DNA of 40,761 bases from Mycobacteriales bacterium. GTDB taxonomy: Bacteria; Actinomycetota; Actinomycetes; DATLTS01. Within the stretch, counting starts at the first letter, position 1; each line of letters opens with the position of its first letter. Shown one piece after another: positions 6,914 through 35,795 of this stretch. The stretch covers positions 1-40,761 of the forward strand of contig DATLTS010000021.1 of the NCBI GenBank assembly GCA_035533475.1. The letters run 5' to 3'. The notes below the pieces were generated by a model that searched no databases, was not told where the DNA came from, and saw only the letters and a list, made by a program, of their open reading frames with translations. Made by a program: the position numbers and the translations under genes.

Positions 6914-8665
6914 TCAGCCCCGCCCTCGTGGCGCCGCCGGCCGGCCGGTGGGGGGGAGCCGGCGCTCCTCTTCGTGGGCCGTCCCCATCCGGGCCGCCCC
7001 GAGTCCGGAGAAAGCACCGCCGGACCGGAACAGCCGGGTTCGGACGAGGAAGGTCAGCATCGGCTTGGTGAACAAGAAGACGATGAACAGGTCGCAGATC
7101 GTCGACAAACCGAGGGTGAAGGCGAACCCGCGAACGTCGCTAACCGACCACAGGTAAAGGACGATGGCGGCGAGCAGGGAGACGGTGTCCGCGGACAGGA
7201 TCGTCCGCCGCGCGCGCGGCCAGGCGAACTCGACCGCGCTGCGCAGCGTGCGCCCCTCCCGTACCGAGTCCCGGAGCCGCTCGAAGAAGACGACGAAAGA
7301 GTCCGCGGTGATTCCGACCGCCACGATGAAACCGGCGATGCCGGCGAGGGTCAGGGTGTAACCGATGGTGTCGCCCAGCACGGTGACCAGGGCGTAGAGC
7401 AGGACCGCGGAAAGGGCGAGGCTGGCGACGGTCACGAAGCCGAGCCCGCGGTAGTAGACCAGGGAGTAGACGACGACGAGGCCCAACCCGATCGCCCCGG
7501 CGATCAGGCCGCCGCGCAGCTGAGCGGACCCGAGGGTCGGTGACACCGTCTCGATGGTCGCCTTGGACAGGTGGACCGGCAGGGCACCGTACGAGAGCTC
7601 GTTGGCGAGCAACTTGGCGTCGGTCTCGGTGAACGTGCCGCTGATAATGGTCTGCCCGCTGGTGATCGCACCCTGGTTCACCGTGGGGGCGGAGTCGACC
7701 ACCCCGTCGAGAACGACCGCGATCTCGTTGCAGCCGGTCGGCGGGAGGCAGGCGGCGGCCTGCGGACTCGGCAGCTTGAAGGCCTGCCCCGTGAGGTTCG
7801 CCCACAGGCCGGTGCCCTGGCCGTTGAAGTTGAGGTTGACGACCCACTGCCCGGTGCCCTGCTGATCCAGCCCGGCGGAGGCGCTGGAGATCATCGATCC
7901 CTCGACCGTCGCCGGCCCGAGCAGGTACTTGATCGTATGGCTCGAATCGCAGGCGAGGATCCAGTCGCTCGGCAGGTCCGGCGGGGGGTTGTTCAGGTTG
8001 GGCGGGAAGATCGGGTCGGGGTCCTTCGCGCAGTCCAGCTGATTGAACGCCACCTGCGACAGGGGCGAGTTCGGCGTGAACTGCGCGGCGCTCGGGATGC
8101 CGCTCGGGCTGGCCGTCGGGCTCGGGGTCGCCGCCGCCGGCGTCGCGGCGGGCTTCGGGCTGGGGCTCGACCGGGCGGTCGGGCTAGCGGTCGGCAGGGT
8201 GACGATCGCGGCGCCGGCCTTCTTCTTAGCCGGCGATTTGGTCGGCACTGCCTTCAGGCTCGGAACTGGCGCCGGGGCGGTGACGCTTCCGGCGGCGAAC
8301 TCCAGGACCAGCCGGAAGCGCAGCTGAGCGACCTTCTCCAGGCTGTTGATCAGGGCCTCCCTCCCGGTACCCGGGACTTCGATCTTGATGTCGCTGTTGC
8401 CCTGCGTGGTCACCGTCGCCGAGGTCACCCCGCTGCCGTTGACCCGGGCGGTGATGATGTTCGCGGTCTCCTGGAGCTGGCTCTTGGTCACCTGGCCGTG
8501 CGGCACGGTTGCGGTAAGGACGGCGCTGGTGCCGCCCCGCAGGTCGAGGCCGAGCTGGGGCGCGTGCTGGGGGCCGAGGAACACCCCGAGGTAGAGCCCG
8601 ACCACGACGAGCGCCACGACGCCCAGGGACCGGCCGGGGCGCGGCGTCGGACTGCGAGAGGCCAC
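6914..8665 (-). CDS. secD: Protein translocase subunit SecD (with actinobacterial Pro/Ala/Ser/Thr linker)
   Basis: LGLDLRGGTSAVL, the periplasmic P1 domain, and C-terminal RND-like transmembrane helices. A PAKKK/PSPT-rich low-complexity linker is present. Confidence 0.92.
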   Translation of the reverse strand: MASRSPTPRPGRSLGVVALVVVGLYLGVFLGPQHAPQLGLDLRGGTSAVLTATVPHGQVTKSQLQETANIITARVNGSGVTSATVTTQGNSDIKIEVPGTGREALINSLEKVAQLRFRLVLEFAAGSVTAPAPVPSLKAVPTKSPAKKKAGAAIVTLPTASPTARSSPSPKPAATPAAATPSPTASPSGIPSAAQFTPNSPLSQVAFNQLDCAKDPDPIFPPNLNNPPPDLPSDWILACDSSHTIKYLLGPATVEGSMISSASAGLDQQGTGQWVVNLNFNGQGTGLWANLTGQAFKLPSPQAAACLPPTGCNEIAVVLDGVVDSAPTVNQGAITSGQTIISGTFTETDAKLLANELSYGALPVHLSKATIETVSPTLGSAQLRGGLIAGAIGLGLVVVYSLVYYRGLGFVTVASLALSAVLLYALVTVLGDTIGYTLTLAGIAGFIVAVGITADSFVVFFERLRDSVREGRTLRSAVEFAWPRARRTILSADTVSLLAAIVLYLWSVSDVRGFAFTLGLSTICDLFIVFLFTKPMLTFLVRTRLFRSGGAFSGLGAARMGTAHEEERRLPPTGRPAAPRGRG

Positions 8666-8719
8666 AGCTGTTCTCTTTCGGGTCGGGGGACGGCGGGCGC
8701 GCGGCCCTTATCCCGTCGG

Positions 8720-9268
8720 TCAGGCCTGCGGATTCTCCTCCGGCGGCGGGTCGCCGGTTTTCTCCCCGGTCGACCCGGAGCCCGGTTCGGGTGTGTCCGA
8801 GGAGCCGTGCGGCAGCTCCGGGGCCGGCGCCACCCCGGCCGTCGGCTCATCCGGCAAGCCGTGGTCCTCCGCGGGCTCGGGGCCCGGCTCGTCCCTCGGA
8901 TCTGTGGGATCGCCCGCGGCGTGCTCCTGCTCGGGCAGTTCGGGGACCTCCTCGACCGGGGTTACGACCGCGACGACGACCCGTGGATCGAAACGGGCCC
9001 GGACCCCGGGCGCGATCTCGAGCACGAGGTAGTCCGCGTCCACCGAGACCACGGTGGCGTAGAGCCCGGCGTTCGTCCGGACCTCCGCTCCGGGAACTAC
9101 CTGCTGGCGCACCGAGTCGACCTGCTGGCGACGCCGGTTGCGGCCGGGCCGCATGAACAGGAAGACCAGGCCGATGCCGAGCAGCAGGATGAAGAAGACG
9201 GCCGGCGACTGTTTCTTCGCTGGCGTCGTCGTCGCCGCCAGCAGCGCGACGAGGTGGGCGATGTGCAC
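8720..9268 (-). CDS. yajC: Preprotein translocase subunit YajC (with acidic Pro-rich C-terminal tail)
   Basis: A single transmembrane helix followed by MRPGRNRRRQQ and the VVSVDADYLVLEIAPGVRARF core. GTG start preceded by a GGAGAGG Shine-Dalgarno. Confidence 0.8.
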   Translation of the reverse strand: MHIAHLVALLAATTTPAKKQSPAVFFILLLGIGLVFLFMRPGRNRRRQQVDSVRQQVVPGAEVRTNAGLYATVVSVDADYLVLEIAPGVRARFDPRVVVAVVTPVEEVPELPEQEHAAGDPTDPRDEPGPEPAEDHGLPDEPTAGVAPAPELPHGSSDTPEPGSGSTGEKTGDPPPEENPQA

Positions 9269-9313
9269 GAAGGGACCTCTCCGGGAGACTCCGCGAGATC
9301 CTACGTGCCGCGG

Positions 9314-10351
9314 CTATCGGACCTGATCGAACAGGGTCGGGCCGGTCGAGGGCGGCGGGCTGAGCCCGAGGTGACGCCAGGCGGCGGGGGTGGCGACCCG
9401 GCCGCGCGGGGTTCGTGCGAGCAACCCCTGGCGGACGAGGAACGGCTCGGCGACCTCCTCCACGGTTTCCGGCTCCTCCCCCACCGCCACCGCCAAGGTG
9501 GACAGCCCGACCGGGCCCCCACCGAACCGGCGCAGCAGGGCATCGAGAACACCGCGGTCGAGCCGGTCGAGGCCGAGGTCGTCTACCTCGTAGAGCGCGA
9601 GCGCCGCCTCGGCGACCTCCCGGGACACGGTGCCGTCACCCCGGACCTCGGCGTAGTCGCGCACCCGGCGCAGGAGCCGGTTCGCGATCCGCGGGGTCCC
9701 GCGCGAGCGGCCGGATATCTCATCGGCGCCGCCCGAACTGAGCGTCAGACCGAGTAGACCCGCCGAACGCACCAGGACCTGCCGAAGCTCGGCGGGATCG
9801 TAAAAGTCCAGGTGAGCCACGAAGCCGAACCGGTCGCGCAGCGGGCCGGGCAGCAGACCGGCTCGAGTTGTGGCACCGACCAAGGTGAACGGTGCGACGT
9901 CGAGCGGGATCGCGGTCGCCCCGGGCCCCTTGCCGATGACCACGTCGACCCGGAAGTCCTCCATCGCCACGTAGAGCATCTCCTCGGCGGGACGGGCCAT
10001 CCGGTGGATCTCATCGAGGAAGAGCACCTCACCCTCGGTCAAGGTCGAGAGCAGCGCGGCGAGGTCACCGGCGCGCTCTATGGCCGGCCCGCTGGTGATC
10101 CGCAGCGGAGCCCCCAGCTCAGCACCGATGATCATCGCCAGGCTGGTCTTCCCCAGTCCGGGTGGACCGCAGAGCAGCACATGGTCGGGCGGTCGGCCGC
10201 GCCGCTGGGCGCCCTCCAGAACGAGGCCCAGCTGCTCGCGGACCCGCTCTTGACCGATGAACTCGGCGAGCCGACGTGGCCGTAAGGCGGCCTCGACGAC
10301 CCGCTCGTCGCCATCGGCGTAGGGCGAAACCAGCTCGGAGGTCGCGCTCAT
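9314..10351 (-). CDS. ruvB: Holliday junction branch-migration ATPase RuvB
   Basis: Walker [12 protein letters not shown], and the LDEIHRM and [16 protein letters not shown] motifs. Confidence 0.95.
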
Positions 10352-10965
10352 GCCCGGCTCAGCATCCGTAACGCCGAGCGCAGCAGGTCGGCCACCTGGG
10401 GAGCCTCGCCGATCGCCTCGGCGGCGTCAGCCTCGGGGCCCACCGCGATCAAAGCCTCGTCGACCTCGCGGCTGGTCCAGCCGAGGCCAGTGAGGGCCCC
10501 GCGCAGCTGCTCACGCCAGATCGGACCCGGCGCACCGGGCAGGCCACCGGCGGGGGCGGCTGGCCCGGCACCAAGCCGGTCCTTGAGCTCGAGCACGATC
10601 CGCTGCGCACCCTTGCGACCGATTCCGGGAACCATGGTGAGCGCGGCCACGTCCTCGGTCGCGACCGCGACCCGGACCGCCGCGGGGGCGTGCACGCCGA
10701 GCACCGCCTGGGCGAGGCGGGGTCCAACGCCGGTCGCGCTCTGGAGCAGCTCGAAGACGGCCCGCTCGTCATCGTCGAGGAAACCGAAGAGGGTGAGCGC
10801 GTCCTCGCGGACCACGAGCGAGGTGGCGAGTCGCGCCGGCTCGCCGATCCGCAACCGTGCCCTTGTCGCCGGGGTGCAGACCAGGCAGAGGCCGACGCCG
10901 CCGACCTCGATCACCGCCCCGTCCGCGGTCAGCGCGGTGACCCGCCCGCTCACGCTGGCGATCAC
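10348..10965 (-). CDS. ruvA: Holliday junction DNA helicase subunit RuvA
   Basis: [10 protein letters not shown]-terminus, and the HhH motifs [16 protein letters not shown] and [19 protein letters not shown]. The GTG start overlaps the ruvC TGA (GTGA); the ruvB start overlaps the ruvA stop (ATGA). Confidence 0.9.
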
Positions 10966-15979: not shown

Positions 15980-17191
15980 GTGCGGGTCGGCCTGGTCAGC
16001 CCCTACCCGTGGGACGTGCCGGGCGGGGTGGTCGCGCACATCCGCGACTTGGCCGAGGCGCTCCGCGACCTCGGCCATCACGTGTCGGTCATGTCCCCGG
16101 TCGACGACGAGGACGCGGAGGTCCCCGACTATCTCGTCCGGGCCGGGCGCAGCGTCCCGGTTCCCTACAACGGGTCGGTCTCCAGGCTCATCTTCGGCCC
16201 GGTCTCGGCAACCCGGATGTACCGCTGGCTGCGGGAGGGCGACTTCGACGTGCTGCACGTGCACTCCCCGGAAACGTTCTCCCTGTCGCTGCTCGCGCTG
16301 ATGTCCGCCCGCGGGCCGATCGTCGCCACCTTCCACGCCGCGATGCCCCGGTCGCGGATCCTCTCGCTGCTCCAGACGCCGTTGCAGACCCAGCTGGAGA
16401 AGGTGCAGGGGCGAATAGCGGTGTCACCGGCCGCGCGCAAGCTCATCGTCGAGCATCTCGGCGGTGACGCCGTCATCATTCCCAATGGCGTGCGGGTCGC
16501 CCGCTTCTCCGCTGCCCAACCGCTTCCCGGCTGGCCCGGACCGGGGGGCGCGATCGGGTTCGTCGGGCGCATCGACGAACCACGCAAGGGCCTGGCTGTC
16601 CTGCTCGAGGCATTCGGCCGCCTGCTTGCGGATGCGCCGGGTCTTCGGCTGCTGATCGCCGGCCCGGGCGACACCGACGAGGTCCGCGATCTGGTCCCGG
16701 CCCCGGCTCGGGACAACGTGGTCCTGCTCGGTCAGGTGACCGAGGCCGAGAAGGCCCAGGTGTATGCCAGCGTCGACCTTTTCGTCGCACCCAACACCGG
16801 CGGCGAGAGCTTCGGCATCATCCTGCTCGAGGCGATGGCCACCCGGACCCCGATCCTCGCCAGCGACCTCGACGCGTTCCGGTTGGTCCTGGACGACGGC
16901 CGAGCCGGCCGGCTGGTGCCGGTCGGCGACCCGGCGGCGCTGGCTGCCGCCTGCGGCGAGCTGCTCGACGACCCGGGGGCGCGGGCCTGGTTCGCCGAGG
17001 TGGGCTGGCAACGCGTGCAGGGCTTCGACTGGAGCGTCGTCGCCGCCGCCATCGTGCAAGTGTACGAGACCGTGACCGCCGCCGGCGTCCACGTGCAGCC
17101 CGAGCCGGCCGAGCCGGACACCCTTGCCGGAAGCGGCATACCGGGTGGAGAGTCATCGCCACCGAACCGAGGAGGCGAGCCAGATGGCTGA
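15980..17191 (+). CDS. pimA: GDP-mannose-dependent alpha-mannosyltransferase PimA (GT4 family)
   Basis: MRVGLVSPYPWDVPGGV..HI..LA..L...GH.V.V N-terminus and GT4 C-terminal motifs (ESFGIILLEAMA). Synteny with pgsA and the acyltransferase. Confidence 0.85.
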   Translation: MRVGLVSPYPWDVPGGVVAHIRDLAEALRDLGHHVSVMSPVDDEDAEVPDYLVRAGRSVPVPYNGSVSRLIFGPVSATRMYRWLREGDFDVLHVHSPETFSLSLLALMSARGPIVATFHAAMPRSRILSLLQTPLQTQLEKVQGRIAVSPAARKLIVEHLGGDAVIIPNGVRVARFSAAQPLPGWPGPGGAIGFVGRIDEPRKGLAVLLEAFGRLLADAPGLRLLIAGPGDTDEVRDLVPAPARDNVVLLGQVTEAEKAQVYASVDLFVAPNTGGESFGIILLEAMATRTPILASDLDAFRLVLDDGRAGRLVPVGDPAALAAACGELLDDPGARAWFAEVGWQRVQGFDWSVVAAAIVQVYETVTAAGVHVQPEPAEPDTLAGSGIPGGESSPPNRGGEPDG

Positions 17192-19325
17192 CAAGAGCAC
17201 CCCCGGAGCCGCCGCCGGCAGGGCACCGGCGGCCGAGGCACCGGCGTCGGTCCGCAACGTCGTGCTGGTCGGCCACTCGGGGGCTGGAAAGACGACGCTG
17301 GTCGAGGCCCTCCTCGTCGCCACCGGGACGATCCCCCGGGCCGGTCGCGTCGAGGACGGCACCACGATCAGCGACCACGACGAAGCGGAGATCCGCCAAC
17401 ACCGGTCGGTCTCCCTGGCGGTGGCCCCGGTCGAGCACAACGGCATCAAGATCAATCTTCTGGATGCCCCCGGCTACGCCGACTTCGTCGGCGACCTGCG
17501 GGCCGGCCTCCGAGCGGCCGACGCCGCGCTGTTCGTCGTCTCCGCCGCGGACGGGGTCGACGGGACGACGCAGATGATCTGGGACGAGTGCGCCACCGTC
17601 GGCATGCCGCGGGCGGTCGTCATCACCAAGCTGGACTCCCCGCGGGCGGACTTCGAGGCCATCCTGGCGACCTGCCAGCAACGTTTCGGCGACAACGTGC
17701 TGCCGCTCTACCTGCCGTTGCATGCGGAGGAGGGCGTGGCCGGGCTCATCGGCCTGCTCTCGCGGCGGGTCTTCGACTACTCCTCGGGCAGTCGCGCGGA
17801 CCGGGAGCCGGACCCTGAGCACCTGCCGCTCATCCAGGACGCCCGCAACAGCCTGATCGAGGGGATCATCGCCGAGAGCGAGGACGAATCCCTCATGGAC
17901 CGATACCTCGGTGGCGAGGACATCGAATCCAAGGTGCTCATCGACGACCTGGAGAAGGCCGTCGCGCGGGGCAGCTTCTACCCGGTCCTCGCCTCGGCGG
18001 CCCCCAGCGGCCTCGGCAGCGCCGAGCTGCTCGAGGTACTCGCCAGCGCATTCCCCTCCCCCCTCGAGCACCCACTGCCGACGATCACCAGCCCGGACGG
18101 CGCCCCGGTCGAACCACCGCGCTGCGACCCGGACGGCCCGCTCGTCGCCGAGGTGGTGAAGACGACGACCGACCCGTACGTCGGGCGGATCTCCGTCGTG
18201 CGCGTGTTCTCCGGAACGCTGCGCGCGGATGCGATCGTGCACGTATCCGGCCACGGATTGGCCGACCGCGGACACGAGGACCACGACCTCGACGAGAAGC
18301 TCGGCGCGATCTCCTCGCCACTGGGCAAGACATTGCGTCCAGCCGCGCAGTGCATCGCCGGCGATATCTGCACGATCGCCAAGCTGTCCCGGGCCGAGAC
18401 CGGGGACACCCTTTCCGACAGGGACAACCCGCTGCTCGTAGCCGCCTGGGAGATGCCGGAGCCGCTGCTTCCGGTGGCGATCGAGGCGAAGAGCAAGGCC
18501 GACGAGGACAAGCTTTCGACCGGGCTGTCGCGGATCGTCGCCGAGGAGCCGACCGTGCGGCTGGAACGCAACGCGGAGACCCACCAGCTGGTCTTGTGGT
18601 GCATGGGCGAGGCGCACACGGATGTGCTCATCGACCGCTTGAGGTCGAAGTACGGGGTCGAGGTCGCGCAGGTACCGCTGCGCGTGCCACTGCGGGAGAC
18701 CTTCGCCGCCAAGGCGACCGGGCACGGCCGGCACGTCAAACAGTCCGGCGGCCACGGCCAGTACGCGGTGTGCGACCTCGACGTCGAACCCAACGAGTCC
18801 GGGGCCGGTTTCGAATTCGTCGACAAGGTCTTCGGTGGCGCGGTGCCGAATCAGTTCATCCCGTCGGTCGAGAAGGGCGTCCGGGCCCAGATGGAACGCG
18901 GGGTCGTCGCCGGCTACCCGGTCGTCGACATCAAGGTGACCCTGGTCGACGGCAAGGCACACTCCGTCGACTCCTCGGACATGGCCTTCCAGATGGCCGG
19001 CGGGTTGGCGCTCCGGGATGCGGCCAAGGCAACAACGGTCCACCTGCTCGAGCCCGTTTTGGCGGTGGCGGTGCTCGTTGCAGACGAATATGTCGGTGCG
19101 GCGATGAGCGACCTGTCGTCGCGCCGCGGCCGAGTCACCGGAACCGAGCCGTTGGGCCCGGGACGCACGCTGATCCGGGCTGAGGTGCCGGAGATCGAGG
19201 TGACCCGCTACGCCGTCGACCTGCGGTCGATCTCGCACGGGACGGGCACTTTCACCCGTCACTACTTGCGTTACGAGCCGATGCCGCAACACGTCGCCGC
19301 CAAGGTTCTAGCGGAGAATCCGTAG
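17184..19325 (+). CDS. Elongation factor G-like GTPase (EF-G2 paralog)
   Basis: G-domain HSGAGKTTL...DAPGYADF...TKLD, followed by EF-G domains II-V. The ATG at 17184 has a GAGGAGG Shine-Dalgarno and overlaps the pimA 3' end by 8 nt. Confidence 0.85.
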   Translation: MADKSTPGAAAGRAPAAEAPASVRNVVLVGHSGAGKTTLVEALLVATGTIPRAGRVEDGTTISDHDEAEIRQHRSVSLAVAPVEHNGIKINLLDAPGYADFVGDLRAGLRAADAALFVVSAADGVDGTTQMIWDECATVGMPRAVVITKLDSPRADFEAILATCQQRFGDNVLPLYLPLHAEEGVAGLIGLLSRRVFDYSSGSRADREPDPEHLPLIQDARNSLIEGIIAESEDESLMDRYLGGEDIESKVLIDDLEKAVARGSFYPVLASAAPSGLGSAELLEVLASAFPSPLEHPLPTITSPDGAPVEPPRCDPDGPLVAEVVKTTTDPYVGRISVVRVFSGTLRADAIVHVSGHGLADRGHEDHDLDEKLGAISSPLGKTLRPAAQCIAGDICTIAKLSRAETGDTLSDRDNPLLVAAWEMPEPLLPVAIEAKSKADEDKLSTGLSRIVAEEPTVRLERNAETHQLVLWCMGEAHTDVLIDRLRSKYGVEVAQVPLRVPLRETFAAKATGHGRHVKQSGGHGQYAVCDLDVEPNESGAGFEFVDKVFGGAVPNQFIPSVEKGVRAQMERGVVAGYPVVDIKVTLVDGKAHSVDSSDMAFQMAGGLALRDAAKATTVHLLEPVLAVAVLVADEYVGAAMSDLSSRRGRVTGTEPLGPGRTLIRAEVPEIEVTRYAVDLRSISHGTGTFTRHYLRYEPMPQHVAAKVLAENP

Positions 19326-19368
19326 GCCGCGACACGCCGACGCCGCGCCTGCGCGGTTCGGCCGCTCG

Positions 19369-19734
19369 ATGGTGGGACCCTGCTCCCTCGTGGACATCAC
19401 CGCCAATCCGTCGCGCACGGTGCGTGTCGTCCTGGGTGGCGGACTGGGGCTGGCGGCGGCGGTGGTGCTGGCCGTTGCGGTCAATGCCGGCGCCACGGTG
19501 CCCGGTCAGGCACCGACCGTTGGGCGGATCGTCGCCGTGCGGACCGACCTCACTGGTGTGCAGATCGTCTTGGCCGCCGGCCCGGGCCAGGTCGAGGCGG
19601 CGTTGGCGCCACGAGCCCAACTCACGGTGGCTGGCCGTACGGCCAGCCCTTCGGCACTGGTCGACGGGACGCGCTGGCGACTCTGGTACGACGGGTCGGG
19701 AAGGATCGTGCGGGCCGAGCGGCTCGACGCCTAG
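19369..19734 (+). CDS. Hypothetical small membrane-anchored or secreted protein, 121 aa
   Basis: Very high GC3 in frame, with an N-terminal hydrophobic segment (LGLAAAVVLAVAV). No recognisable family. It shares a CTAG stop tetranucleotide with the convergent HIT gene. Confidence 0.45.
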   Translation: MVGPCSLVDITANPSRTVRVVLGGGLGLAAAVVLAVAVNAGATVPGQAPTVGRIVAVRTDLTGVQIVLAAGPGQVEAALAPRAQLTVAGRTASPSALVDGTRWRLWYDGSGRIVRAERLDA

Positions 19735-20306
19735 CCCGGCAAGTTCCCCGGTGCCGAACCACTCGGCCATGCTGCCGCCAGCATCTGTCTGGTCTCGGTC
19801 AGCAATTGCGGCAATACTTTGGTGTGCCCGACCACGGGCATGAGGTTCGTGTCACCGCCCCAGCGCGGCACCACATGCTGGTGCAGGTGCGCGGCTATCC
19901 CCGCGCCGGCGACCGCCCCCTGGTTCATCCCGACGTTGAAGCCCTGCGCGCCGCTGGCGGTACGCAGAACGCTCATCGCCTGCTTGGTGAAACCCGCCAA
20001 TTCCGCCGTCTCCTCCGCGGTGAGGTCGGTGTAGTCCGACACGTGCCGGTAGGGCACGACCATGAGGTGCCCGGCGTTGTAGGGGTAGAGGTTCAGCACC
20101 GCGTAAACCAAATCGCCGCGGGCGACAACGAGCCCCTCGGCGTCGGGCATGGGCTGGATCCGGCAGAACGGGCACCCCTCGTCCGGGCCCGCCCCGGTCG
20201 GCTTTCCCTCGCCCCGGATGTAGGCCATCCGGTGCGGCGTCCACAGTCGCTGAAAGGCGTCCGGGCTGCCCGCACCCTGCTGCTGGGCGGGCTGCTCCAC
20301 CGTCAT
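19731..20306 (-). CDS. HIT-family protein (Ap4A phosphorylase / GalT-like HIT)
   Basis: Histidine-triad motif [12 protein letters not shown], plus CPFC and the nucleotide-binding region. Confidence 0.85.
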
Positions 20307-22276
20307 GGGACGGCCGGCGGGTCGGGGTCGGGGCGGCGTTCGGCGACGACTCGGCGGATCTCCTCGAGCGCCTCGTCGACCGCCACACCGCGCCGCTCGA
20401 CCCCGTTGCGGTAGCGGAAGGACACCGCACCGGCCTCGATGTCGCGGTCGCCGGCGATCAGCATGAACGGCACTTTCTCCTGCTGGGCCTTGACAATCTT
20501 CTTCTGCATCCGCTCGTCGCTGTCATCGACATCGACCCTGATGCCATGGCTGCGCAGCCGGTCCGCGACCCCGCTGAGATAGTCGACGTGGCGTTCGGCG
20601 ATCGGGATACAGGTGACCTGGACCGGTGACAGCCAGGCCGGGAACGCGCCGGCGTAGTGCTCGGTCAGGACACCGAGGAACCGTTCGACCGAACCAAACA
20701 GCGCTCGATGGATCATCACCGGCGATGGCCGGCCCCCGTCAGCCGCCTGGTACTCCAGCTCGAAGCGCCGAGGCAACTGGAAGTCCACCTGGATGGTGGA
20801 CAGTTGCCAGGTCCGGCCGATCGCGTCCCGGGCCTGCACGCTGATCTTCGGGCCGTAGAACGCTGCCCCGCCCGGATCGAGGACCAGGTCGAGCTGCTCA
20901 CCCTCGGCTGCCGCTCGGAGCGCATCGGTGGCCTCCACCCAGTCCTCCTCGGCGCCGACGAACTTCTCCGAGTCGTCGCGGGTGGACAGCTCGAGATAGA
21001 ACTCGGACAGGCCGTAGTCGCGGAGCAGATCCAGCACGAACCGCAGGAGGGACTTGAGTTCGCCAGCCATCTGCTCGCGCGTGCAGAAGATGTGCGCGTC
21101 GTCCTGGGTCATCCCGCGAACCCGGGTGAGCCCGTGGACAACGCCTGACTTCTCGAACCGGTACACGCTGCCGAACTCGAAAAACCGCAGTGGCAGCTCA
21201 CGGTAGGAGCGCCCGCGCGCCCGGAACACCAGGATGTGGAACGGGCAGTTCATCGGCTTCAGGTAGTAGTCCGCGCCTTCCATGTGCATCGGCGGATACA
21301 TGCCGTCGGCGAACCACTGGAGATGACCCGAGGTCTCGAACAGCTGGCCCTTGGTGATGTGCGGCGAGTACACGAAGGAGTAGCCCGCCTCCTCGTGCCG
21401 CAGCCGCGAGTAGTCCTCCATGACCCGGCGCAGGATCCCGCCCTTCGGATGGAAGACCGCGAGGCCTGAACCGATCTCGGACGGGAAGGAGAACAGGTCC
21501 AGCTCCGCTCCGAGCCGGCGATGGTCGCGTCGCTCGGCCTCCTCCAGCAGGTGCAGGTGGGCGGCGAGCGCATCGTCGCTCTCCCACGCGGTGCCGTAGA
21601 TGCGCTGCAGCTGGCGGTTGTGCTCGTCGCCGCGCCAGTAGGCCGCGGCCGTCCGCATCAGCCGGAAGGCCGGGATCCGGGCGGTCGACGGGACATGCGG
21701 CCCGCGGCAGAGGTCGGTGAACGCGGCCCCCTCGTCGGCCAGGTTGTCGTACACGCTGATCTCGGGGCCGGCCGCGTCGACCACCTCGTCGCCTTCGACG
21801 TTGCCGGCGGCGGCCCGCTCGATGATGTCCAGTTTGTACGGCTGGGCGCGGAACAGCCGGGATGCCTCCGCCGGCTCGACGACCCGCCGGGAGAAGCGCT
21901 GGTCGGCACGGATGATCTCCCGCATCCGCGCCTCGATCCGCTCGACGTCCTCCGGGGTGAACGGGCGTTCGACATCGAAGTCGTAGTAGAAGCCGTTCTC
22001 GATCGGTGGTCCGATCGCGAATTTCGCATCGGGGAACAGGTCGGTGACCGCCTGGGCGAGCACATGTGCGGTCGAGTGCCGGAGGATCGCCCGCCCGTCC
22101 GCCGAGCCGAGCAGGATCGACTCCAACCGGTCGCCTTCGGCCGGTACGAAGCTCAGGTCCGCGAGCTGCCCGCCGTTGACCCGGACCGCTATGACCTCCG
22201 CGCCGCCAACGAGATCCGCGGCCGTCGCCCCAGCCGGGACGCTGCGCGCCTCGCGGTCAACGGTGATCTCCGGCAC
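20303..22276 (-). CDS. thrS: Threonine--tRNA ligase
   Basis: TGS and N2 editing domains, class II core motifs ([21 protein letters not shown]), and a C-terminal anticodon-binding domain. The stop overlaps the HIT start (ATGA). Confidence 0.95.
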
Positions 22277-22369
22277 GGCAGGGCTCCTCGGGCAGACGCG
22301 GGGGTCGCCGCGATGCTACCGAGCGGGCCGGCGACAGCCGGCGGCGTTCATGCCGAAGGGCGGGCGGCG

Positions 22370-25097: not shown

Positions 25098-25853
25098 TCA
25101 GGCGCTGATGGCCACCGGGGTCCGGGTCGTGCGGGCCGGGACCCCGGGCCCGTTCTCCTCGGTGATGGCAAACGTGCCCGCCAGCCCGGTCACCGACCCG
25201 ACATCGACCGTCGTCAGTCCCGCTCCGGTGACCCGGAAGCCGCCGACCGGCTGCAAGGCCCCGTCCGCGATGCGCCAGAGCACGTAGATGCTGGTCCCCG
25301 TCGTCGGACTGAGCCGGTCGGCGACCAAGGTCACGCTGGTCCCCCGCAGCAAGGCGGCCGCAGCGGGCTGCGCCGAGCCGGCGATGTGCAGCACGACCGT
25401 GTGGCAACCGGTCTGCTCTAGACAGCCGAGGACCTGCGAGCTTGCGAGCAGCGAAGGATTGCTCGACGACCCGCCGCCCAGGGTGAGCGGCAGGCTGATG
25501 GCCGCCGCTACCGCTGCGCCGGCTGCCGCCGCGAGCAGCGAGTTGCGGTAACCGCCCCGACGGAAGCCGATCTGGCGGACCAGGGCCGAACCCGGCGCCA
25601 CCACAGCCCGGGCATCACGTCCGATCTCCTCATCGATCGCAGCCCACAGTGACTTCGGGGGAAGGGCCGGCTCGGCGACCGTCGCCAGCTCGGTCACGGT
25701 CGCCTCGAAGCCGGCAACGGTCTGCTGGCACTGCGGGCAACCGAGCAGGTGCCGGAGAAAGGCGTTCTCCTCGGCCGGCTCGAGCGCGTGCAGCGCGGAA
25801 CCCGCTGCCAGTTCGTCCCACTCCTGATGGTGGCGAGATGCTGGACCAGTCAT
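25098..25853 (-). CDS. Zinc-finger anti-sigma factor (ZAS; RskA-like) with transmembrane and extracytoplasmic domains
   Basis: HLLGCPQCQ (HxxxCxxC) ZAS motif, a central transmembrane segment ([16 protein letters not shown]), and a C-terminal anti-sigma-K-like domain. The start overlaps the stop of the sigma gene (ATGA). Confidence 0.8.
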   Translation of the reverse strand: MTGPASRHHQEWDELAAGSALHALEPAEENAFLRHLLGCPQCQQTVAGFEATVTELATVAEPALPPKSLWAAIDEEIGRDARAVVAPGSALVRQIGFRRGGYRNSLLAAAAGAAVAAAISLPLTLGGGSSSNPSLLASSQVLGCLEQTGCHTVVLHIAGSAQPAAAALLRGTSVTLVADRLSPTTGTSIYVLWRIADGALQPVGGFRVTGAGLTTVDVGSVTGLAGTFAITEENGPGVPARTTRTPVAISA

Positions 25854-26485
25854 CGGAGTTCACCTCGCAGAAAATCGAAGGAGTCCGGGGCGTCCCCGGC
25901 TAGTGCATCACGAAGCCGGCGCAGACCGGCAAACGTGCGGGTCTTCACCGTTCCCAACGGCACATCTATCAGTTGCGCGATCTCTTGCTGCGTGTAGCCG
26001 CCGAAGTAGGCAAGGAGCAACGGGGTCCGCTGCGCTTCGGGAAGGGTCTGCAGCGCCGCTCGTATCCGGTTCGCCCGCAGGCTGTCGTCCGCCAATTCGG
26101 CGACGTCAGAGCCGCCCGCGGGCTCCTCGTACAGCAGGTCGAAGTTGTCCCGCCGGCGCCGGTGGACGTCCTCACGTCTGACCGCGTCGACACTCTTGTG
26201 GTGGGTGATCGAGAGTAGCCAGGTCTTCACGCTGGCCTTGGCCTGGTCGTACCCGGAGGACCGCCGCCAAAGCGCGACGAAAACCTCCTGTACCACGTCC
26301 TCGGCCAGCCCCTCGTCCCCCACGATGCGCCGGGCCAGGCCGTAGCAGGCGGCGCCGTAGCGCCGGTATATCTCCCCCAGCGCATCCCGGTCGCCTCCGG
26401 TGACCGCGTCGATCAGGAGTGCGTCCGGGCGGTCGCCGACGTCGGCGACCGGCTGGTGACGCGAAAGCATCTGGACCGACCTCAC
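25850..26485 (-). CDS. ECF (group IV) RNA polymerase sigma-70 factor, SigK-like
   Basis: Sigma-2 region (VQEVFVALWRRSSGYD...KTWLLSITHHKSVDAVRRE) and sigma-4 HTH (YTQQEIAQLIDVPLGTVKTR). Confidence 0.88.
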   Translation of the reverse strand: MRSVQMLSRHQPVADVGDRPDALLIDAVTGGDRDALGEIYRRYGAACYGLARRIVGDEGLAEDVVQEVFVALWRRSSGYDQAKASVKTWLLSITHHKSVDAVRREDVHRRRRDNFDLLYEEPAGGSDVAELADDSLRANRIRAALQTLPEAQRTPLLLAYFGGYTQQEIAQLIDVPLGTVKTRTFAGLRRLRDALAGDAPDSFDFLRGELR

Positions 26486-32989: not shown

Positions 32990-33844
32990 TCAGGGCTCGA
33001 CCCCCAGCACTTCCGGTGGGCGATACTTACCCGCATGCGAACCGGCGTGTGACGGCTGCGGGTCCCGATATCGATCTTCGGTCGCGGTGAGGATGACGGG
33101 CCCGTCGTCGGCGATGACGATGGTGTGTTCGAAGTGGGCGCCGCGCGAGCCATCGGTGCTGCGCAGGGTCCACCCGTCGAGGTCGACGCGGTAGGCGTCG
33201 AGGCCGCCGCCGAGGAACCACGGTTCGATGGCGATGGTCAGGCCGGTCCGTAGGCGTAGCCCGCGTCCGGGGTGGCCGTCATTCGGCACGGAGGGGCTTT
33301 CATGCATCGTGCGGCCGACACCGTGGCCGCCGAAGTCGGTGTGCAGCCCGTAGCCAGCTGCGCGGGCGACGGTACCGATGGCGGCGCTGATATCGCCGAG
33401 GTGAGCACCGGGCTGCGCAGCGGCGATCCCGTTGCGGAGTGCCTGCTCGGTGGCTCGCAGCAACTCCAGATCGTCAGCGCAGGAATGCCCGACGCAGAAC
33501 GAGATGGCGGCGTCGCCGGCCCACCCGTCGAGAGTTACGCCGCAGTCGACGCTGAGCATGTCGCCGTCGTGTAGCCGGTAGTGGCTCGGCGGCCCGTGCA
33601 AGACCGCGTCATTGACCGACAGGCACAGCACGCCGGGAAACGGCGTGGGGGCGAAGGCGGGCTGGTAGCCGAGGAACGGTGAGGTGGCGCCCGCGGCGGC
33701 GAGCATGGTCCGGGCCAGGCCGTCCAGATCGTCCAGTCGCACGCCGACGGCGGCTTTGGCGCGGACCGTGGTGAGGATGTCGGCCACGATGGCACCGGCG
33801 GCGCGCATCGCCTCGATCTCGCCAGGTGACTTGAGTTCGATCAT
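32990..33844 (-). CDS. map: Type I methionine aminopeptidase
   Basis: Pita-bread fold metal ligands (DGDMLSVDCG, HGVGRTMHE, IEPWF), with a C-terminal extension. Confidence 0.92.
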   Translation of the reverse strand: MIELKSPGEIEAMRAAGAIVADILTTVRAKAAVGVRLDDLDGLARTMLAAAGATSPFLGYQPAFAPTPFPGVLCLSVNDAVLHGPPSHYRLHDGDMLSVDCGVTLDGWAGDAAISFCVGHSCADDLELLRATEQALRNGIAAAQPGAHLGDISAAIGTVARAAGYGLHTDFGGHGVGRTMHESPSVPNDGHPGRGLRLRTGLTIAIEPWFLGGGLDAYRVDLDGWTLRSTDGSRGAHFEHTIVIADDGPVILTATEDRYRDPQPSHAGSHAGKYRPPEVLGVEP

Positions 33845-33857
33845 CGCGTTTCGCCTT

Positions 33858-33884
33858 CCGGTATTTCTATCCCGGTATTACTAT
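33858..33884. promoter_or_regulatory. Tandem imperfect 13/14-bp direct repeat (ccggtatttctat / cccggtattactat) in the AT-richer map/XRE divergent promoter region; candidate operator
   Basis: Seen directly in the sequence, 8 bp upstream of the XRE regulator start codon. Confidence 0.4.
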
Positions 33885-33891
33885 CGCACGC

Positions 33892-34152
33892 ATGGTGCGA
33901 CCGATGCTGACTCCGGAGGAACGCGAACGCGGCCGGCAACTCGGCGCGGCCCTCCGCGCCGTTCGAGGCCCCCGCAGCATGGTCGAGGTCGCTGCAGTCT
34001 CGGGCGTGGCGATCGAGACACTCCGCAAGATCGAGACCGGCCGAATCGTCACCCCGGCGTTCTTCACCGTCGTAGCGCTGGCCCGGGCGCTTGCGGTGCC
34101 GCTGGAGGCACTCGCCTCGGCGGAGCAGCAGACGCTGACAGCGGTCAGCTAA
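33892..34152 (+). CDS. XRE-family helix-turn-helix transcriptional regulator, 86 aa
   Basis: HTH_3-like sequence EVAAVSGVAIETLRKIETGRIVTPAFFTVVALARAL. Confidence 0.75.
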   Translation: MVRPMLTPEERERGRQLGAALRAVRGPRSMVEVAAVSGVAIETLRKIETGRIVTPAFFTVVALARALAVPLEALASAEQQTLTAVS

Positions 34153-34219: not shown

Positions 34220-34260
34220 CTGTCCCATGCCGGCCGAAAATCCGGACCTCGTAGTGGTAG
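34220..34260. repeat. Left copy of an about 40-bp imperfect direct repeat flanking the vapBC module
   Basis: ctgtcccatgccggccgaaaatccggacctcgtagtggtag against the right copy ctgtcccatatccggccgaaatccggagttcagagtggtgg (core 27/29 identical). Confidence 0.55.
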
Positions 34261-34275
34261 TCCCAAGATTCAACA

Positions 34276-34305
34276 CCCGTACGGATCTGTACGAATCCGT
34301 GCGGG
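34276..34305. promoter_or_regulatory. 11-bp inverted repeat (cccgtacggat-N8-atccgtgcggg) followed by a TAGACT -10-like hexamer just upstream of the vapB ATG; candidate VapB operator / leaderless promoter
   Basis: Palindrome seen directly. TAGACT at 34311-34316 ends 7 nt before the ATG, consistent with a leaderless transcript. Confidence 0.4.
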
Positions 34306-34323
34306 TCGCGCTAGACTGGATCC

Positions 34324-34608
34324 ATGGCCACGATCAACGCCGACGAGGTGAGGATTCCGCGGAGCGTGCGGGACGCGGTGACCCGCCACGAACAGGTTGT
34401 CGTACTCAACAGGGAGCGGCCGGTACTCGCCATCGTGCACCCGGACGACCTGCCTCACTTAGGCACTCGGCGTCGTGGTCGGGCAGTACGGGAGATCGCA
34501 GCGCTGCTCGCCGGAACTCCCGCTCCCGACCCGGACTTCGCCAAGGACATGGACGCCGTCTTGGACAGCGTCGGGCCCGCGCCGGAGGATCCGTGGGAGC
34601 GGTCGTAG
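34324..34608 (+). CDS. vapB: VapB-type antitoxin, 94 aa
   Basis: Small acidic C-terminus; it precedes and overlaps (by 16 nt) a PIN-domain gene. Confidence 0.7.
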   Translation: MATINADEVRIPRSVRDAVTRHEQVVVLNRERPVLAIVHPDDLPHLGTRRRGRAVREIAALLAGTPAPDPDFAKDMDAVLDSVGPAPEDPWERS

Positions 34609-35027
34609 ACACCACGGTCTTCATCGACCTGGAGCGCTCAACTTCGCGAGAGGGGCACGCCCGTTCCGCCGAACTGATCGGCCAGCGCCTGACGGAATGC
34701 CTCGGGCCTGACGAACAAGCAGCTATTGCGGCCATCACCGCCAGCGAGTTGCTCCACGGCGTACACCGCGCGAGCGCTAAACACCGCGCCACACGCGAGG
34801 CCTTTGTCGAATCGATCCTCGCGGTCGTTCCCGTTCTCGATTTCGACCTGCTGGCGGCCCGAGCACATGCGCGACTGTGGGCCGACCTTGCCAACACCGG
34901 GTCCGACGTCGGGCCACACGACCGGATAGTAGCCGCGACCGCGATAAGCCTCGGCTGGCAAGTGGCAACGGCCAACGTACGTCACTTCGGACGGATCGCG
35001 GGTCTCGACGTGGTCGAGGTGCGCTGA
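34593..35027 (+). CDS. vapC: VapC PIN-domain ribonuclease toxin, 144 aa
   Basis: VVDTTVFIDLER (first catalytic Asp), ITASELLHGV, and DRIVAATAISLGWQVATANVRHF (distal Asp). The GTG start lies inside the vapB 3' end. Confidence 0.8.
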   Translation: MGAVVDTTVFIDLERSTSREGHARSAELIGQRLTECLGPDEQAAIAAITASELLHGVHRASAKHRATREAFVESILAVVPVLDFDLLAARAHARLWADLANTGSDVGPHDRIVAATAISLGWQVATANVRHFGRIAGLDVVEVR

Positions 35028-35046
35028 CGTGACTGTTCCCAAACGG

Positions 35047-35087
35047 CTGTCCCATATCCGGCCGAAATCCGGAGTTCAGAGTGGTGG
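35047..35087. repeat. Right copy of the vapBC-flanking direct repeat; its last 6 nt overlap the 3' end of tRNA-Val(CAC)
   Basis: See the left copy. Confidence 0.55.
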
Positions 35088-35156
35088 GCGATACTGGGTT
35101 CGAACCAGTGACCTCCTCGGTGTGAACGAGGCGCTCTACCACTGAGCCAATCGCCC
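35082..35156 (-). tRNA. tRNA-Val (anticodon CAC), CCA encoded
   Basis: The reverse complement folds as a canonical cloverleaf: GGGCGAT acceptor, GCTC/GAGC D-stem, CCTCG-TTCACAC-CGAGG anticodon arm, ACTGG-TTCGAAC-CCAGT T-arm, ATCGCCC-A-CCA. Confidence 0.9.
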
Positions 35157-35366: not shown

Positions 35367-35795
35367 ATGAACGCTCGACCCGAGTCCGTTAAGGAAGAGC
35401 TCGAGCTGCGCCTCGTCGTCCCCGGCAGCGGTTCCTTGCCGGTCGCGGCGGACATGTCCTACGAGTCGGCCGACCCCTACGCGGTCCACGTGGCCTTCCA
35501 CACCGGCGAGGAAGAGATCGTCGAGTGGGTGTTCGCCCGGCAGCTGCTCACCGACGGGGTCACCCACCCGGTGGGCGAGGGCGACGTGCAGGTTTGGCCG
35601 TCGCACGCGGAGGGGCGCCCGGTCGTCTGCCTCGCGCTGTCCAGCCCGTCCGGCCGGGCGCTGTTCGAAGCGCCGCTCACCGAGCTCGTCGAGTTCCTGA
35701 CCAAGACCTACGCCGCGGTCCCTACCGGCAGCGAAAGCGACTTCGTCGACCTGGACTCGGAGCTTGCCCTGCTGATCTGGGGCGAGGAGAGCTGA
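35367..35795 (+). CDS. ssgB: SsgB-like sporulation/cell-division protein (SsgA-like protein family)
   Basis: LELRLVVPGSGSLPVAADMSYESADPYAVHVAFHTGEEEIVEWVFARQLL...DVQVWPS...VVCLALSSPSGRALFEAP closely parallels Streptomyces SsgB. Confidence 0.85.
   Translation: MNARPESVKEELELRLVVPGSGSLPVAADMSYESADPYAVHVAFHTGEEEIVEWVFARQLLTDGVTHPVGEGDVQVWPSHAEGRPVVCLALSSPSGRALFEAPLTELVEFLTKTYAAVPTGSESDFVDLDSELALLIWGEES

Follow-up and report, generated by a model that had tools for sequence, protein, structure and literature searches.

A vapBC toxin-antitoxin cassette lies between two imperfect direct repeats at the 3' end of a tRNA-Val(CAC) gene in the window, by which we mean the whole 40,761-nt stretch of DNA that was analysed. 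Does this arrangement record an integration at the tRNA gene, and what exactly was inserted? The initial annotation had proposed a small mobile islet or integration scar, flanked by a duplicated segment of the tRNA 3' end. The features on which our answer is based are collected in Table 1.

Table 1. Sites and genes between the MAP gene and tRNA-Val(CAC) in the window
Feature	Position	Strand	Basis or remark
MAP, type I methionine aminopeptidase (unit 1)	32990..33844	-	Pfam Peptidase_M24, TIGR00500
O copy, GGTGGGCGATACT, 13-nt exact duplicate of the tRNA-Val(CAC) 3' acceptor end	33015..33027	+	
E2 motif, TACCCGCATGCGAACCGG...	33028..33050	+	conserved non-tRNA continuation of O at cassette borders
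XRE-type HTH regulator, divergent from MAP (unit 1)	33892..34152	+	Pfam HTH_31 / HTH_3
T_L, left trailer copy	34220..34254	+	main part of left repeat; alignment and profile
O* remnant, tggtag	34255..34260	+	compare tggtgg at tRNA end; E2 missing
Remnant of vapBC leader, gattcaaca	34267..34275	+	homology with L116/L117 from 34267
Putative VapB operator, cccgtacggat-N8-atccgtgcggg	34276..34305	+	sequence itself
vapB-like antitoxin gene, 94 aa	34324..34608	+	role assigned by position
vapC, PIN-domain toxin, 144 aa, GTG start	34593..35027	+	Pfam PIN PF01850, E 3.1e-13
T_R, right trailer copy	35047..35081	+	conserved 3' end of vapBC unit; other-locus profile, E 4.9e-15
O, last 14 nt of tRNA gene, TGGTGGGCGATACT	35082..35095	+	recurrent breakpoint (junction table)
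tRNA-Val(CAC), intact, CCA encoded	35082..35156	-	ARAGORN; Rfam tRNA model, 71.3 bits

The repeat pair and the vapBC cassette

The direct repeat of about 40 bp described in the initial annotation exists. Alignment of 34220-34258 with 35047-35085 gave 33 identities in 40 columns with two 1-base indels. The blocks ctgtcccat, ccggccg and aaatccgga are exact in both copies, and the identity ends at O*. The local alignment of the two copies scored 41, against a maximum of 34 over about 900 other windows of the contig, which by itself is only moderate support for the repeat. A 20-nt pattern taken from the left copy was expected 0.03 times by chance, as judged from shuffles. A profile built from homologs at other loci, without any sequence from the window, matched both copies and nothing else in the window (right copy, Table 1; left copy, E 1.2e-5, or E 2.6e-4 with a trailer-only profile). 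The repeat junctions recur in three assemblies of the contig (ENA, JGI, Logan). With an identity of only about 82%, the copies point to an old event or to separate origins.

As had been claimed, the copies bracket the vapB operator, vapB and vapC (34261-35046). The toxin has the PIN domain of type II VapBC systems. The nearest relatives of known structure are tRNA(fMet)-specific VapC endonucleases (E 3e-13, PDB), and the scores of the window protein against NCBIfam VapC models were under the curated cut-offs. Shared with known VapBC systems are also a small upstream gene overlapping the toxin start (here by 16 nt) and a putative palindromic operator, equivalent to conserved GTACGG-type repeats about every 10 bp. 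In contrast to these systems, the putative antitoxin matches no known family: the 94-aa protein had no match in Pfam, NCBIfam or PDB, and a 94-aa partner is found upstream of vapC in every homologous locus. A -10-like tagact at 34312-34317 is located 6 nt before the ATG of vapB and suggests that the vapBC mRNA may be leaderless. Altogether, the vapBC unit spans about 0.83 kb, with its own operator and predicted promoter and no recombinase, and thus resembles a cis-mobilizable element (CIME). GC content is 0.655-0.667 across vapBC and 0.67-0.73 in the surroundings, a difference that does not decide whether the DNA is foreign.

A gap of 54 nt separates the end of vapC from the 3' end of tRNA-Val(CAC), which is intact. 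In agreement with the initial annotation, the block occupies an insertion hot spot immediately beside this end of the tRNA gene. The annotation's description of the right copy as fused to the tRNA end holds for the last 4-6 nt only. Given the tRNA coordinates, the right copy overlaps just the encoded ACCA (4 identical nt, or 5 of 6 when tggtag is compared with tggtgg), and the remainder is a 35-nt trailer (T). The repeated segment is therefore trailer plus ACCA and not a duplicated tRNA 3' segment. The sequence gattcaaca, previously taken for a relic of a T-loop, is homologous to the vapBC leader of locus L116 (GATTCGCAA). The Rfam tRNA model gave no match there even at E up to 10, and the left copy was rejected as a decayed tRNA on these grounds. 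A permissive alignment can be stretched from the left copy over the whole tRNA.

A third site and the orthologous site in relatives

A true duplicate of the tRNA end was found 1.2 kb further left, at 33015-33027, so that the inserted block is about 2.07 kb long and includes MAP and XRE. Matches to the 13-mer in the window are confined to 33015 and 35083 (0.04 expected), and taken on its own the 13-mer is of marginal significance (blastn-short E 0.056). It is continued by E2, which was recovered by a profile made without window sequence (E 0.008) and is in register with copies in L087, L096 (three copies), L105 and L114 (three copies). With this third site, the insertion reads O-E2 / MAP-XRE / T-O* / vapBC / T-O-tRNA. 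The insertion has its outer, attL-like border at the O copy (33015-33027). The left copy at 34220, which shares only ACCA with the tRNA, is not an outer border but an internal joint between two units.

In tRNA sense, the flank of the O copy reads GCCCACCG, and this form without CCA is also that of the native tRNA genes in 6 of the 11 closest relatives. Left of 33015, similarity to the trailers of relatives did not extend beyond 4 nt, which is at noise level, so that the comparison did not identify the flank as a native trailer. The MAP reading frame overruns the stop of the 98% relative in L087 by about 26 codons, through E2. The MAP-XRE pair is kept in relatives, in differing neighbourhoods.

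The tRNA-Val(CAC) gene was found upstream of ssgB in 74 of 80 relatives, and none of these 74 sites carries vapBC, MAP, XRE, T or E2. The empty site predicted in the initial annotation, with XRE directly beside tRNA-Val, was not found. The ssgB relatives carry thrS or other genes at this position (in L045, thrS abuts the tRNA gene), and in L087-L095, the relatives with MAP-XRE, the pair has other neighbours. When XRE was looked up exactly, only the contig under study was returned. The assembled contigs examined showed neither an empty site nor an allele with a precise deletion, and no circular junction was seen in them either. Assembly breaks occur within the tRNA in Logan contigs and 7 nt short of the left copy in L087. 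They were discounted as signs of population variation, because k-mers shared between tRNA genes, together with effects of coverage, suffice to produce them. In other lineages (L068, L043, L062 and L072), the final 10-14 nt of tRNA-Val(CAC) occur as short tandem duplications.

Related sites and cassettes at other loci

Beyond the window, 7 independent loci contributed 9 further trailer copies, which share one orientation and all end in a tRNA-Val 3' end (O, TGGTGGGCnnTACT). The sites of this T, O and E2 family are confined to cassette borders and the ends of tRNA-Val genes. vapC homology was the route to every array locus, which is an ascertainment bias, and all are metagenomic or MAG contigs. 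vapBC-T-O is joined to an intact tRNA-Val(CAC) in the window and in L103, to tRNA-Val(UAC) in L099 and L118, and to E2 followed by another cassette in L096, L105/L120, L114 and L116. The partner of the vapBC unit thus varies while the nucleotide positions of the joint stay the same. In the junction table, tRNA sequence continues O in 5 sites, and E2 does so in 10. The CCA is encoded in all T-O sites, and E2 always starts directly after ...TACT. The right copy, which had been regarded as a tRNA duplicate, accordingly belongs to a vapBC-trailer unit that occurs on two tRNA-Val isoacceptors and in toxin-antitoxin arrays elsewhere.

The order of cassettes varies between genomes. L096 reads O-E2 / vapBC / T-O-E2 / PIN/FitA / O-E2 / PIN/Phd / T-O-(3' half of tRNA-Val), the tRNA half being followed by terminase and capsid genes. 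L114 reads vapC' / 117-aa ORF / PIN/Phd / PIN/FitA, and L105 has two diverged vapBC cassettes in tandem with T-O-E2 between them. O-E2 is present between two cassettes in L096 and missing between the same two in L118. Degenerate junctions were seen at L096_5502 and L114_2784. In L099, L103 and L118, vapBC-T-O-tRNA occurs without an O-E2 site on the left, so that T could be the ancestral trailer of a tRNA-Val gene. L099 and L118 share an orthologous vapBC-T-tRNA-Val(UAC)-SURF1 arrangement.

T_R is 74-94% identical to the trailers of L096, L099, L103, L116 and L118, and 69% to that of L105; among one another, the repeat copies are 55-96% identical. The trailer is about as conserved as coding DNA. 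DNA homology with every other vapBC locus begins at the operator (34277/8), and the leaders upstream of it are unrelated between loci. We rejected the trailer as a conserved hairpin or terminator: RNAalifold found neither a consensus structure nor covariation in the 11 trailer copies, base-pair counts in the hairpin were not above those of controls, and no terminator-like site or T tract was found.

As the initial annotation had stated for the segment between the repeats, the ORFs of the block gave no match to a recombinase domain; no integrase or recombinase was found among the other window ORFs tested either. The same was true within about 5 kb of the arrays in L096/L097, L099, L103 and L105/L120 and of the trailer-less cassette locus L101. 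A resolvase in L087 was dismissed as the recombinase, having no homolog in any other array locus. No integrase-bearing element with the same att specificity was present in the fetched loci or in viral, phage and plasmid collections. In these collections (IMG/VR, INPHARED, PLSDB), the cassette, T-O-E2 and E2 were without a true match, and a phage or plasmid origin was rejected for this reason. A degenerate T-O pattern had 16 viral matches, all attributable to chance by profile and GC content.

Origin of the arrangement and comparison with known systems

We favour, with moderate confidence, the interpretation that the two copies of about 40 bp are junctions of a tandem site-specific insertion of integrase-less, CIME-like units at the 3' end of tRNA-Val(CAC). 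The native flank would be followed by O-E2 at 33015-33050 as an attL-like border, and then by MAP-XRE. T-O* at 34220-34260 would be an attP-like joint between units, at which E2 and most of the vapBC leader were presumably deleted. After the operator, vapB and vapC, T-O with the rest of the tRNA (35047-35156) would form the attR-like junction, the end of the tRNA gene there probably being supplied by the inserted DNA. The units may have been inserted by site-specific recombination of the tyrosine-integrase type, with the crossover placed within the final 13-14 nt of the tRNA gene and with T-O-E2 carried by each incoming unit as its attachment site. We infer this mechanism, including O (35082-35095) as the crossover region and an integrase acting in trans, from the arrangement of the sites. 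The vapBC unit itself would be one of two things: a small cassette that depends for its movement on an integrase encoded elsewhere, or the addictive part left from a larger element that has decayed. Prophages of Actinobacteria are known to integrate at the 3' end of tRNA-Val genes, one example being the att TTGGTGGGCGCGGAGGGTTTCGAACCC (PMC3986857), and a described route leads from decay into CIMEs without an integrase to their accretion in tandem (PMC5704250).

Could the arrangement have arisen without a dedicated recombinase? Homologous recombination, unequal crossing-over or slipped replication between T-O-E2/V repeats of 50-90 bp is a rather unlikely source. The repeats would ultimately be copies of the tRNA-Val 3' end with its trailer, and the genes between them would have been duplicated, deleted and reordered. 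They are long enough for RecA-dependent or RecA-independent exchange, and this explanation agrees with the heterogeneity of the junctions (E2 missing at 34260, the degenerate sites in L096 and L114, L118 without O-E2) and with the lack of a recombinase gene near the arrays tested. It leaves unexplained, however, the first arrival at tRNA-Val(CAC), given the 74 relatives without units, the presence of the vapBC unit on two different tRNA-Val genes at the same position, and the constant start of E2. Moreover, at 55-96% identity to one another, the copies are poor substrates for homologous exchange. We consider it improbable that vapBC with T is an ancestral neighbour of tRNA-Val, the block having been transferred by homology-facilitated illegitimate recombination. 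In that case T would be the native 3' flank and terminator of the tRNA gene and the left copy a leftover of an earlier event, one side having recombined via conserved tRNA sequence and the other illegitimately. The L099/L118 arrangement and L103, all without a left att site, fit this proposal, as does the fact that homology reaches its limit at the operator in every locus, next to unrelated leaders. The presence of T after a different cassette (PIN/Phd) in L096 and L114, the joining of T-O to E2 instead of tRNA in 4 loci, O-E2 at 33015 in the window and the shuffling of arrays between genomes argue against it, and a one-sided anchor would yield no duplicated trailer on the far side.

The least probable explanation, and one that our data largely refute, is that the 27-bp core is a generic dispersed REP-like element or terminator hairpin, located after XRE and vapC by chance. 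The core does contain a 5-bp stem with a 7-nt loop and lies downstream of convergent genes. Yet no further copy was detected in the 40.7-kb window, either with up to 3 mismatches or by profile search, nor in the 80 related ssgB loci; the many dispersed copies typical of REP/BIME elements contrast with the 40.7-kb window, where the only two trailer copies are located next to the tRNA. The core also lacks a terminator-like T tract, its hairpin is not kept by covariation, and all homologs elsewhere are tied to a tRNA-Val-type end.

Tandem insertion of integrase-less units at the tRNA end also has precedents. CIMEs, as known from ICESt1/ICESt3-related elements of Streptococcus thermophilus and from Streptomyces pathogenicity islands (PMC5704250), have att-type direct repeats at the 3' end of the target gene, carry no integrase or transfer genes and occur in tandem with other units via internal attP-like joints. 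The window block likewise has att-like sites without recombination genes (33015-33050, 34220-34260 and 35047-35095). For CIMEs, an origin has been proposed in which an integrated element decays and a further one integrates at the regenerated site (PMC5704250). Unlike CIMEs, the window units are only 0.8-1.2 kb long with a single two-gene operon each, the repeated segment is mostly trailer and not target-gene sequence, and no intact partner ICE or IME is located beside any array found here. The CIME-like character is our reading of the sequence, and cis-mobilization is putative.

Actinobacterial elements that target tRNA genes (phiRv2 and phiM172_1 at tRNA-Val, the AICE pSAM2 at tRNA-Pro) also insert at the tRNA 3' end, regenerate this end with element DNA, as would be the case here, and leave a duplicate of it at the far border, which in the window is the 13-nt copy at 33015. 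The tRNA half with terminase and capsid genes beside the L096 array is a classical case of this kind. Such elements encode their own integrase and measure 10-60 kb, whereas the block has none, is 2 kb long and consists of several units in series. Known tRNA-Val att cores reach into the T-loop, but identity here is confined to the last 13-14 nt.

The arrays share with the toxin-antitoxin cassettes of chromosomal superintegrons that compact, self-promoted cassettes, each ending in a conserved site of about 50 nt, are arranged in an order that differs between genomes, with no recombinase inside the cassettes. They differ from integrons in being anchored on a tRNA gene, in the absence of an IntI gene and of attI from the window and the tested flanks, and in the absence of an attC core (GTTRRRY) from the alignment and of a conserved hairpin. 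We do not claim that the window array is an integron. The pdif modules of Acinetobacter plasmids are likewise small, often consist of toxin-antitoxin pairs, have no recombinase of their own and are bounded by short recombination sites. They are thought to be moved by the host recombinase, and their sites are dif-like 28-mers for XerC/XerD, inverted and located on plasmids, in contrast to the tRNA-end-derived direct repeats on the chromosome described here.

In a broader and more doubtful version, which we put forward tentatively, Frankiales-like actinobacteria would possess an integron-like gene capture system on the last 14 nt of tRNA-Val(CAC/UAC), with cassettes ending in T-O-E2 of about 90 nt and a recombinase encoded elsewhere. 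The cassettes, mostly toxin-antitoxin pairs but also a peptidase-regulator pair, would be captured, stacked and reshuffled.

The event is of a known kind, here unusually small, without its own integrase, and recurring in related soil actinobacteria. The literature that we searched did not describe such an arrangement. Should the units be no more than decayed scars, they would represent ordinary accretion at a tRNA hot spot. If the favoured interpretation is true, sites of integration at tRNA genes can gather very small units, each of one operon and without an integrase. Such islets would escape island finders, which rely on integrases and long tRNA repeats, and the T, O and E2 motifs would provide a searchable signature for annotation. 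That the breakpoint recurs in the last 14 nt of tRNA-Val would point to a recombinase with an identifiable specificity. The gathering of such units would provide a concrete route, comparable to that of integron cassettes, by which vapBC-type genes may spread and pile up in actinobacterial chromosomes.

The repeat flanking vapBC

The two direct repeats that bracket vapBC (positions in the table) match in 33 of the 40 columns of their alignment, which contains two one-base indels (only ~82% identity). A trailer profile built exclusively from loci of other genomes and contigs (L-numbers below) matched both copies (E 4.9e-15 and 1.2e-5) and nothing else in the window, confirming that the repeat reported in the initial annotation is real. 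Its interpretation as a duplicated segment of tRNA-Val(CAC) did not hold. The tRNA part is ACCA only; the remainder is a 35-nt sequence downstream of the tRNA, the trailer (T). The supposedly T-loop-like gattcaaca belongs to the vapBC leader: it aligns with GATTCGCAA of L116, and DNA homology between L116 and the window begins there. Two further readings were rejected, the left copy as tRNA relic (the Rfam tRNA model matched the real tRNA alone, even at E up to 10) and the repeat as a REP-like element, there being no further copy in 40.7 kb. The trailer hairpin was without covariation support, and no sites of terminator-like or sigma-70-like consensus were found.

Features of the window around tRNA-Val(CAC)
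Feature	Position	Strand
EF-G-like gene, HIT gene, thrS	17076-22315	
ECF sigma/anti-sigma (RskA-like) pair	25098-26485	
MAP-XRE pair	32990-34152	
MAP, type I methionine aminopeptidase	32990-33844	minus
Third site (tRNA-end copy and E2)	33015-33050	
Tandem 14-bp repeat	33858-33885	
XRE, HTH regulator	33892-34152	plus
Left repeat copy	34220-34258	
gattcaaca	34267-34275	
Operator, left limit of vapBC homology	34277/8	
vapB-like gene, 94 aa	34324-34608	
vapC, PIN-domain gene	34593-35027	
Right repeat copy	35047-35085	
ACCA	35082-35085	
tRNA-Val(CAC)	35082-35156	minus
Logan contig breaks	~35108-35129	
ssgB	35367-35795	

The metagenomic contig stems from a Frankiales-like actinobacterium, whose SsgB reaches no more than 77% identity with MAG representatives, and is present in independent ENA, JGI and Logan assemblies. 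Logan contigs from the same samples (L002 end, L005/L006 start) break within the tRNA gene with k-mer overlap, which is likely due to k-mers common to the metagenome's tRNA-Val genes rather than to strain variation.

Cassettes joined at a tRNA-Val end

The toxin is a PIN protein of the VapC type, and its closest relatives are tRNA(fMet)-specific endonucleases. Its homologs at 88-96% identity are numerous, whereas MAP in the same database does not exceed 85% outside its own strain. The antitoxin matched no described family. In every locus, vapBC DNA homology starts on the left at the operator, with unrelated leaders upstream, and extends through vapB, vapC and the trailer to a tRNA-type end, O (TGGTGGGCnnTACT); L101 has a cassette without trailer. 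Trailers are 69-94% identical between loci, about level with coding DNA. O is followed either by an intact tRNA-Val (CAC in the window and L103, UAC in L099 and L118) or by a conserved non-tRNA motif, E2 (TACCCGCAT(A/G)CGAACCGG), and then another cassette (L096, L105/L120, L114, L116).

Every array locus was reached via homology to vapC and comes from a metagenomic or MAG contig. L096 reads PIN remnant, O-E2, vapBC, T-O-E2, PIN/FitA, O-E2, PIN/Phd and T-O, the last O opening the 3' half of tRNA-Val(CAC), behind which prophage genes lie. L114 holds L096's cassettes in another order (vapC', 117-aa ORF, PIN/Phd, PIN/FitA). In L105 (7102-8227) and L120 (9685-10846), two diverged vapBC cassettes stand in tandem, parted by trailer-O-E2 and a ~90-nt leader, in the NIF3/CT398 neighbourhood where L099 has tRNA-Val(UAC). 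L118 and L096 have a TA-x/vapBC pair in common, with O-E2 between the two cassettes in L096 only. O is therefore a recurrent breakpoint, at which different partners are joined at the same position.

The tRNA half in L096 (7161-7245) covers the gene from its CCA end up to and including the anticodon stem, and DUF2335, small-terminase and capsid genes lie past it (8332-10435). The arrangement is that of a prophage attached in the classical way, by crossover in the anticodon loop; it adjoins the toxin-antitoxin array and is distinct from the O-type junctions. The tRNA-Val(UAC) locus (L088 1079-1153, L099 5491-5565, L118 2452-2526) lies between NIF3/PLDc_N and SURF1/TPMT genes; L088 has GmrSD, MAP-XRE and Clp_N there, L099 has vapBC and L118 two toxin-antitoxin pairs. 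Relative to TPMT, L088 and L099 have the tRNA in opposite orientations.

The third site and tRNA-Val(CAC) in relatives

A third site in the window reads GGTGGGCGATACT followed by TACCCGCATGCGAACCGG, a tRNA-end copy plus E2. The copy is exact over 13 nt and one of two matches in the window (0.04 expected), and E2 was matched by a profile without window sequence (E 0.008). In L087, a 98% identical strain, O-E2-MAP-XRE is arranged as in the window, and divergence sets in 19 nt left of O. Beyond O-E2, L087 (1282-3661) encodes a small serine recombinase with a Resolvase domain and a 560-aa protein that belongs to no known family, where the window has a DinB-family gene; other array loci contain no homologs of either. 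The window's MAP ORF runs ~26 codons beyond L087's stop, through E2. The MAP-XRE pair is kept in relatives beside other genes (L087, L088-L093, L094-L095); as it recurs in four different neighbourhoods, the two genes behave like a portable module. The promoter region shared by the divergent genes carries a tandem 14-bp repeat (CCGGTATTTCTATC/CCGGTATTACTATC).

Among 80 ssgB loci from species-representative genomes, tRNA-Val(CAC) lies upstream of ssgB on the opposite strand in 74. None of the 74 has vapBC, MAP or XRE past the tRNA 3' end; the sequence that follows differs in each relative, and none contains T. The empty site predicted initially, XRE adjoining tRNA-Val, is absent from the data, and MAP-XRE in relatives has other neighbours. 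The EF-G-like gene, HIT gene and thrS are kept on the tRNA 3' side, and thrS abuts the tRNA in L045. In the window, 12.7 kb separate thrS from the tRNA. Part of these 12.7 kb is an ECF sigma/anti-sigma pair, which in many relatives lies between tRNA-Val(CAC) and ssgB (L037 4382-5844; also L020, L042) and in the window ~9 kb across the tRNA; the region has thus been rearranged. In other lineages (L068, L043, L062, L072), the final 10-14 nt of tRNA-Val(CAC) occur as short tandem duplications just after the tRNA, with GTTACGCCCACCCC three times in L068; these resemble recombination scars at the very 3' end.

The flank of the third site, in tRNA sense, is GCCCACCG, without encoded CCA. Many relatives have this form, including 6 of the 11 closest, whereas the window's tRNA gene and every T-O site encode CCA. 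The difference is consistent with an origin of the present tRNA 3' end from inserted DNA; the flank is a weak hint of the native form, because it is otherwise without similarity to the relatives' trailers.

Serial insertion and the nature of the units

The window thus reads flank, O-E2, MAP-XRE, T-O*, vapBC, T-O-tRNA, where O* is an O remnant; a tandem insertion would be expected to give this order, with attL, unit, attP-like joint, unit and attR. The two repeat copies are the internal (left) and the tRNA-proximal (right) joint. Measured against L096 and L116, the internal one has lost E2 and roughly 100 nt of leader. The initial idea of integration at the tRNA is thus partly supported, in altered anatomy: the outer border is at 33015, the repeat is trailer and the left copy is internal. 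We infer that units integrated one after another, site-specifically, at the last 13-14 nt of tRNA-Val, and that T-O-E2 served as their attachment site. Neither a recombinase nor an empty site or a circle was seen. The 3' ends of tRNA-Val are documented targets of actinobacterial prophages (PMC3986857), and integrated elements are known to decay to integrase-less cis-mobilizable elements (CIMEs), new elements then accreting where the site is regenerated (PMC5704250).

One possibility is that the 0.8-1.2-kb units are autonomous cassettes moved in trans, as suggested by their compactness and end-to-end conservation (86% over 915 nt between L096 and L116), their shuffled orders, the diverged copies in tandem, and the fact that no integrase lies near arrays with tested flanks (L096/L097, L099, L103, L105/L120). 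The other is that they are scars, addictive remnants of larger elements, to which the heterogeneous junctions and the missing left-hand site in L099, L103 and L118 point.

The block beside the tRNA works like a CIME that has accreted in tandem at such a gene. The arrays resemble integron toxin-antitoxin cassettes and, by analogy, pdif modules; they differ from integrons in that neither IntI, in the window and the tested flanks, nor attC structure was found, and from integrative elements in having no integrase of their own. T and E2 were not found in viral, phage and plasmid collections, and we found no description of this arrangement in the literature. Evidence of a recombinase acting in trans and of mobile cassettes would raise the interest of the finding.
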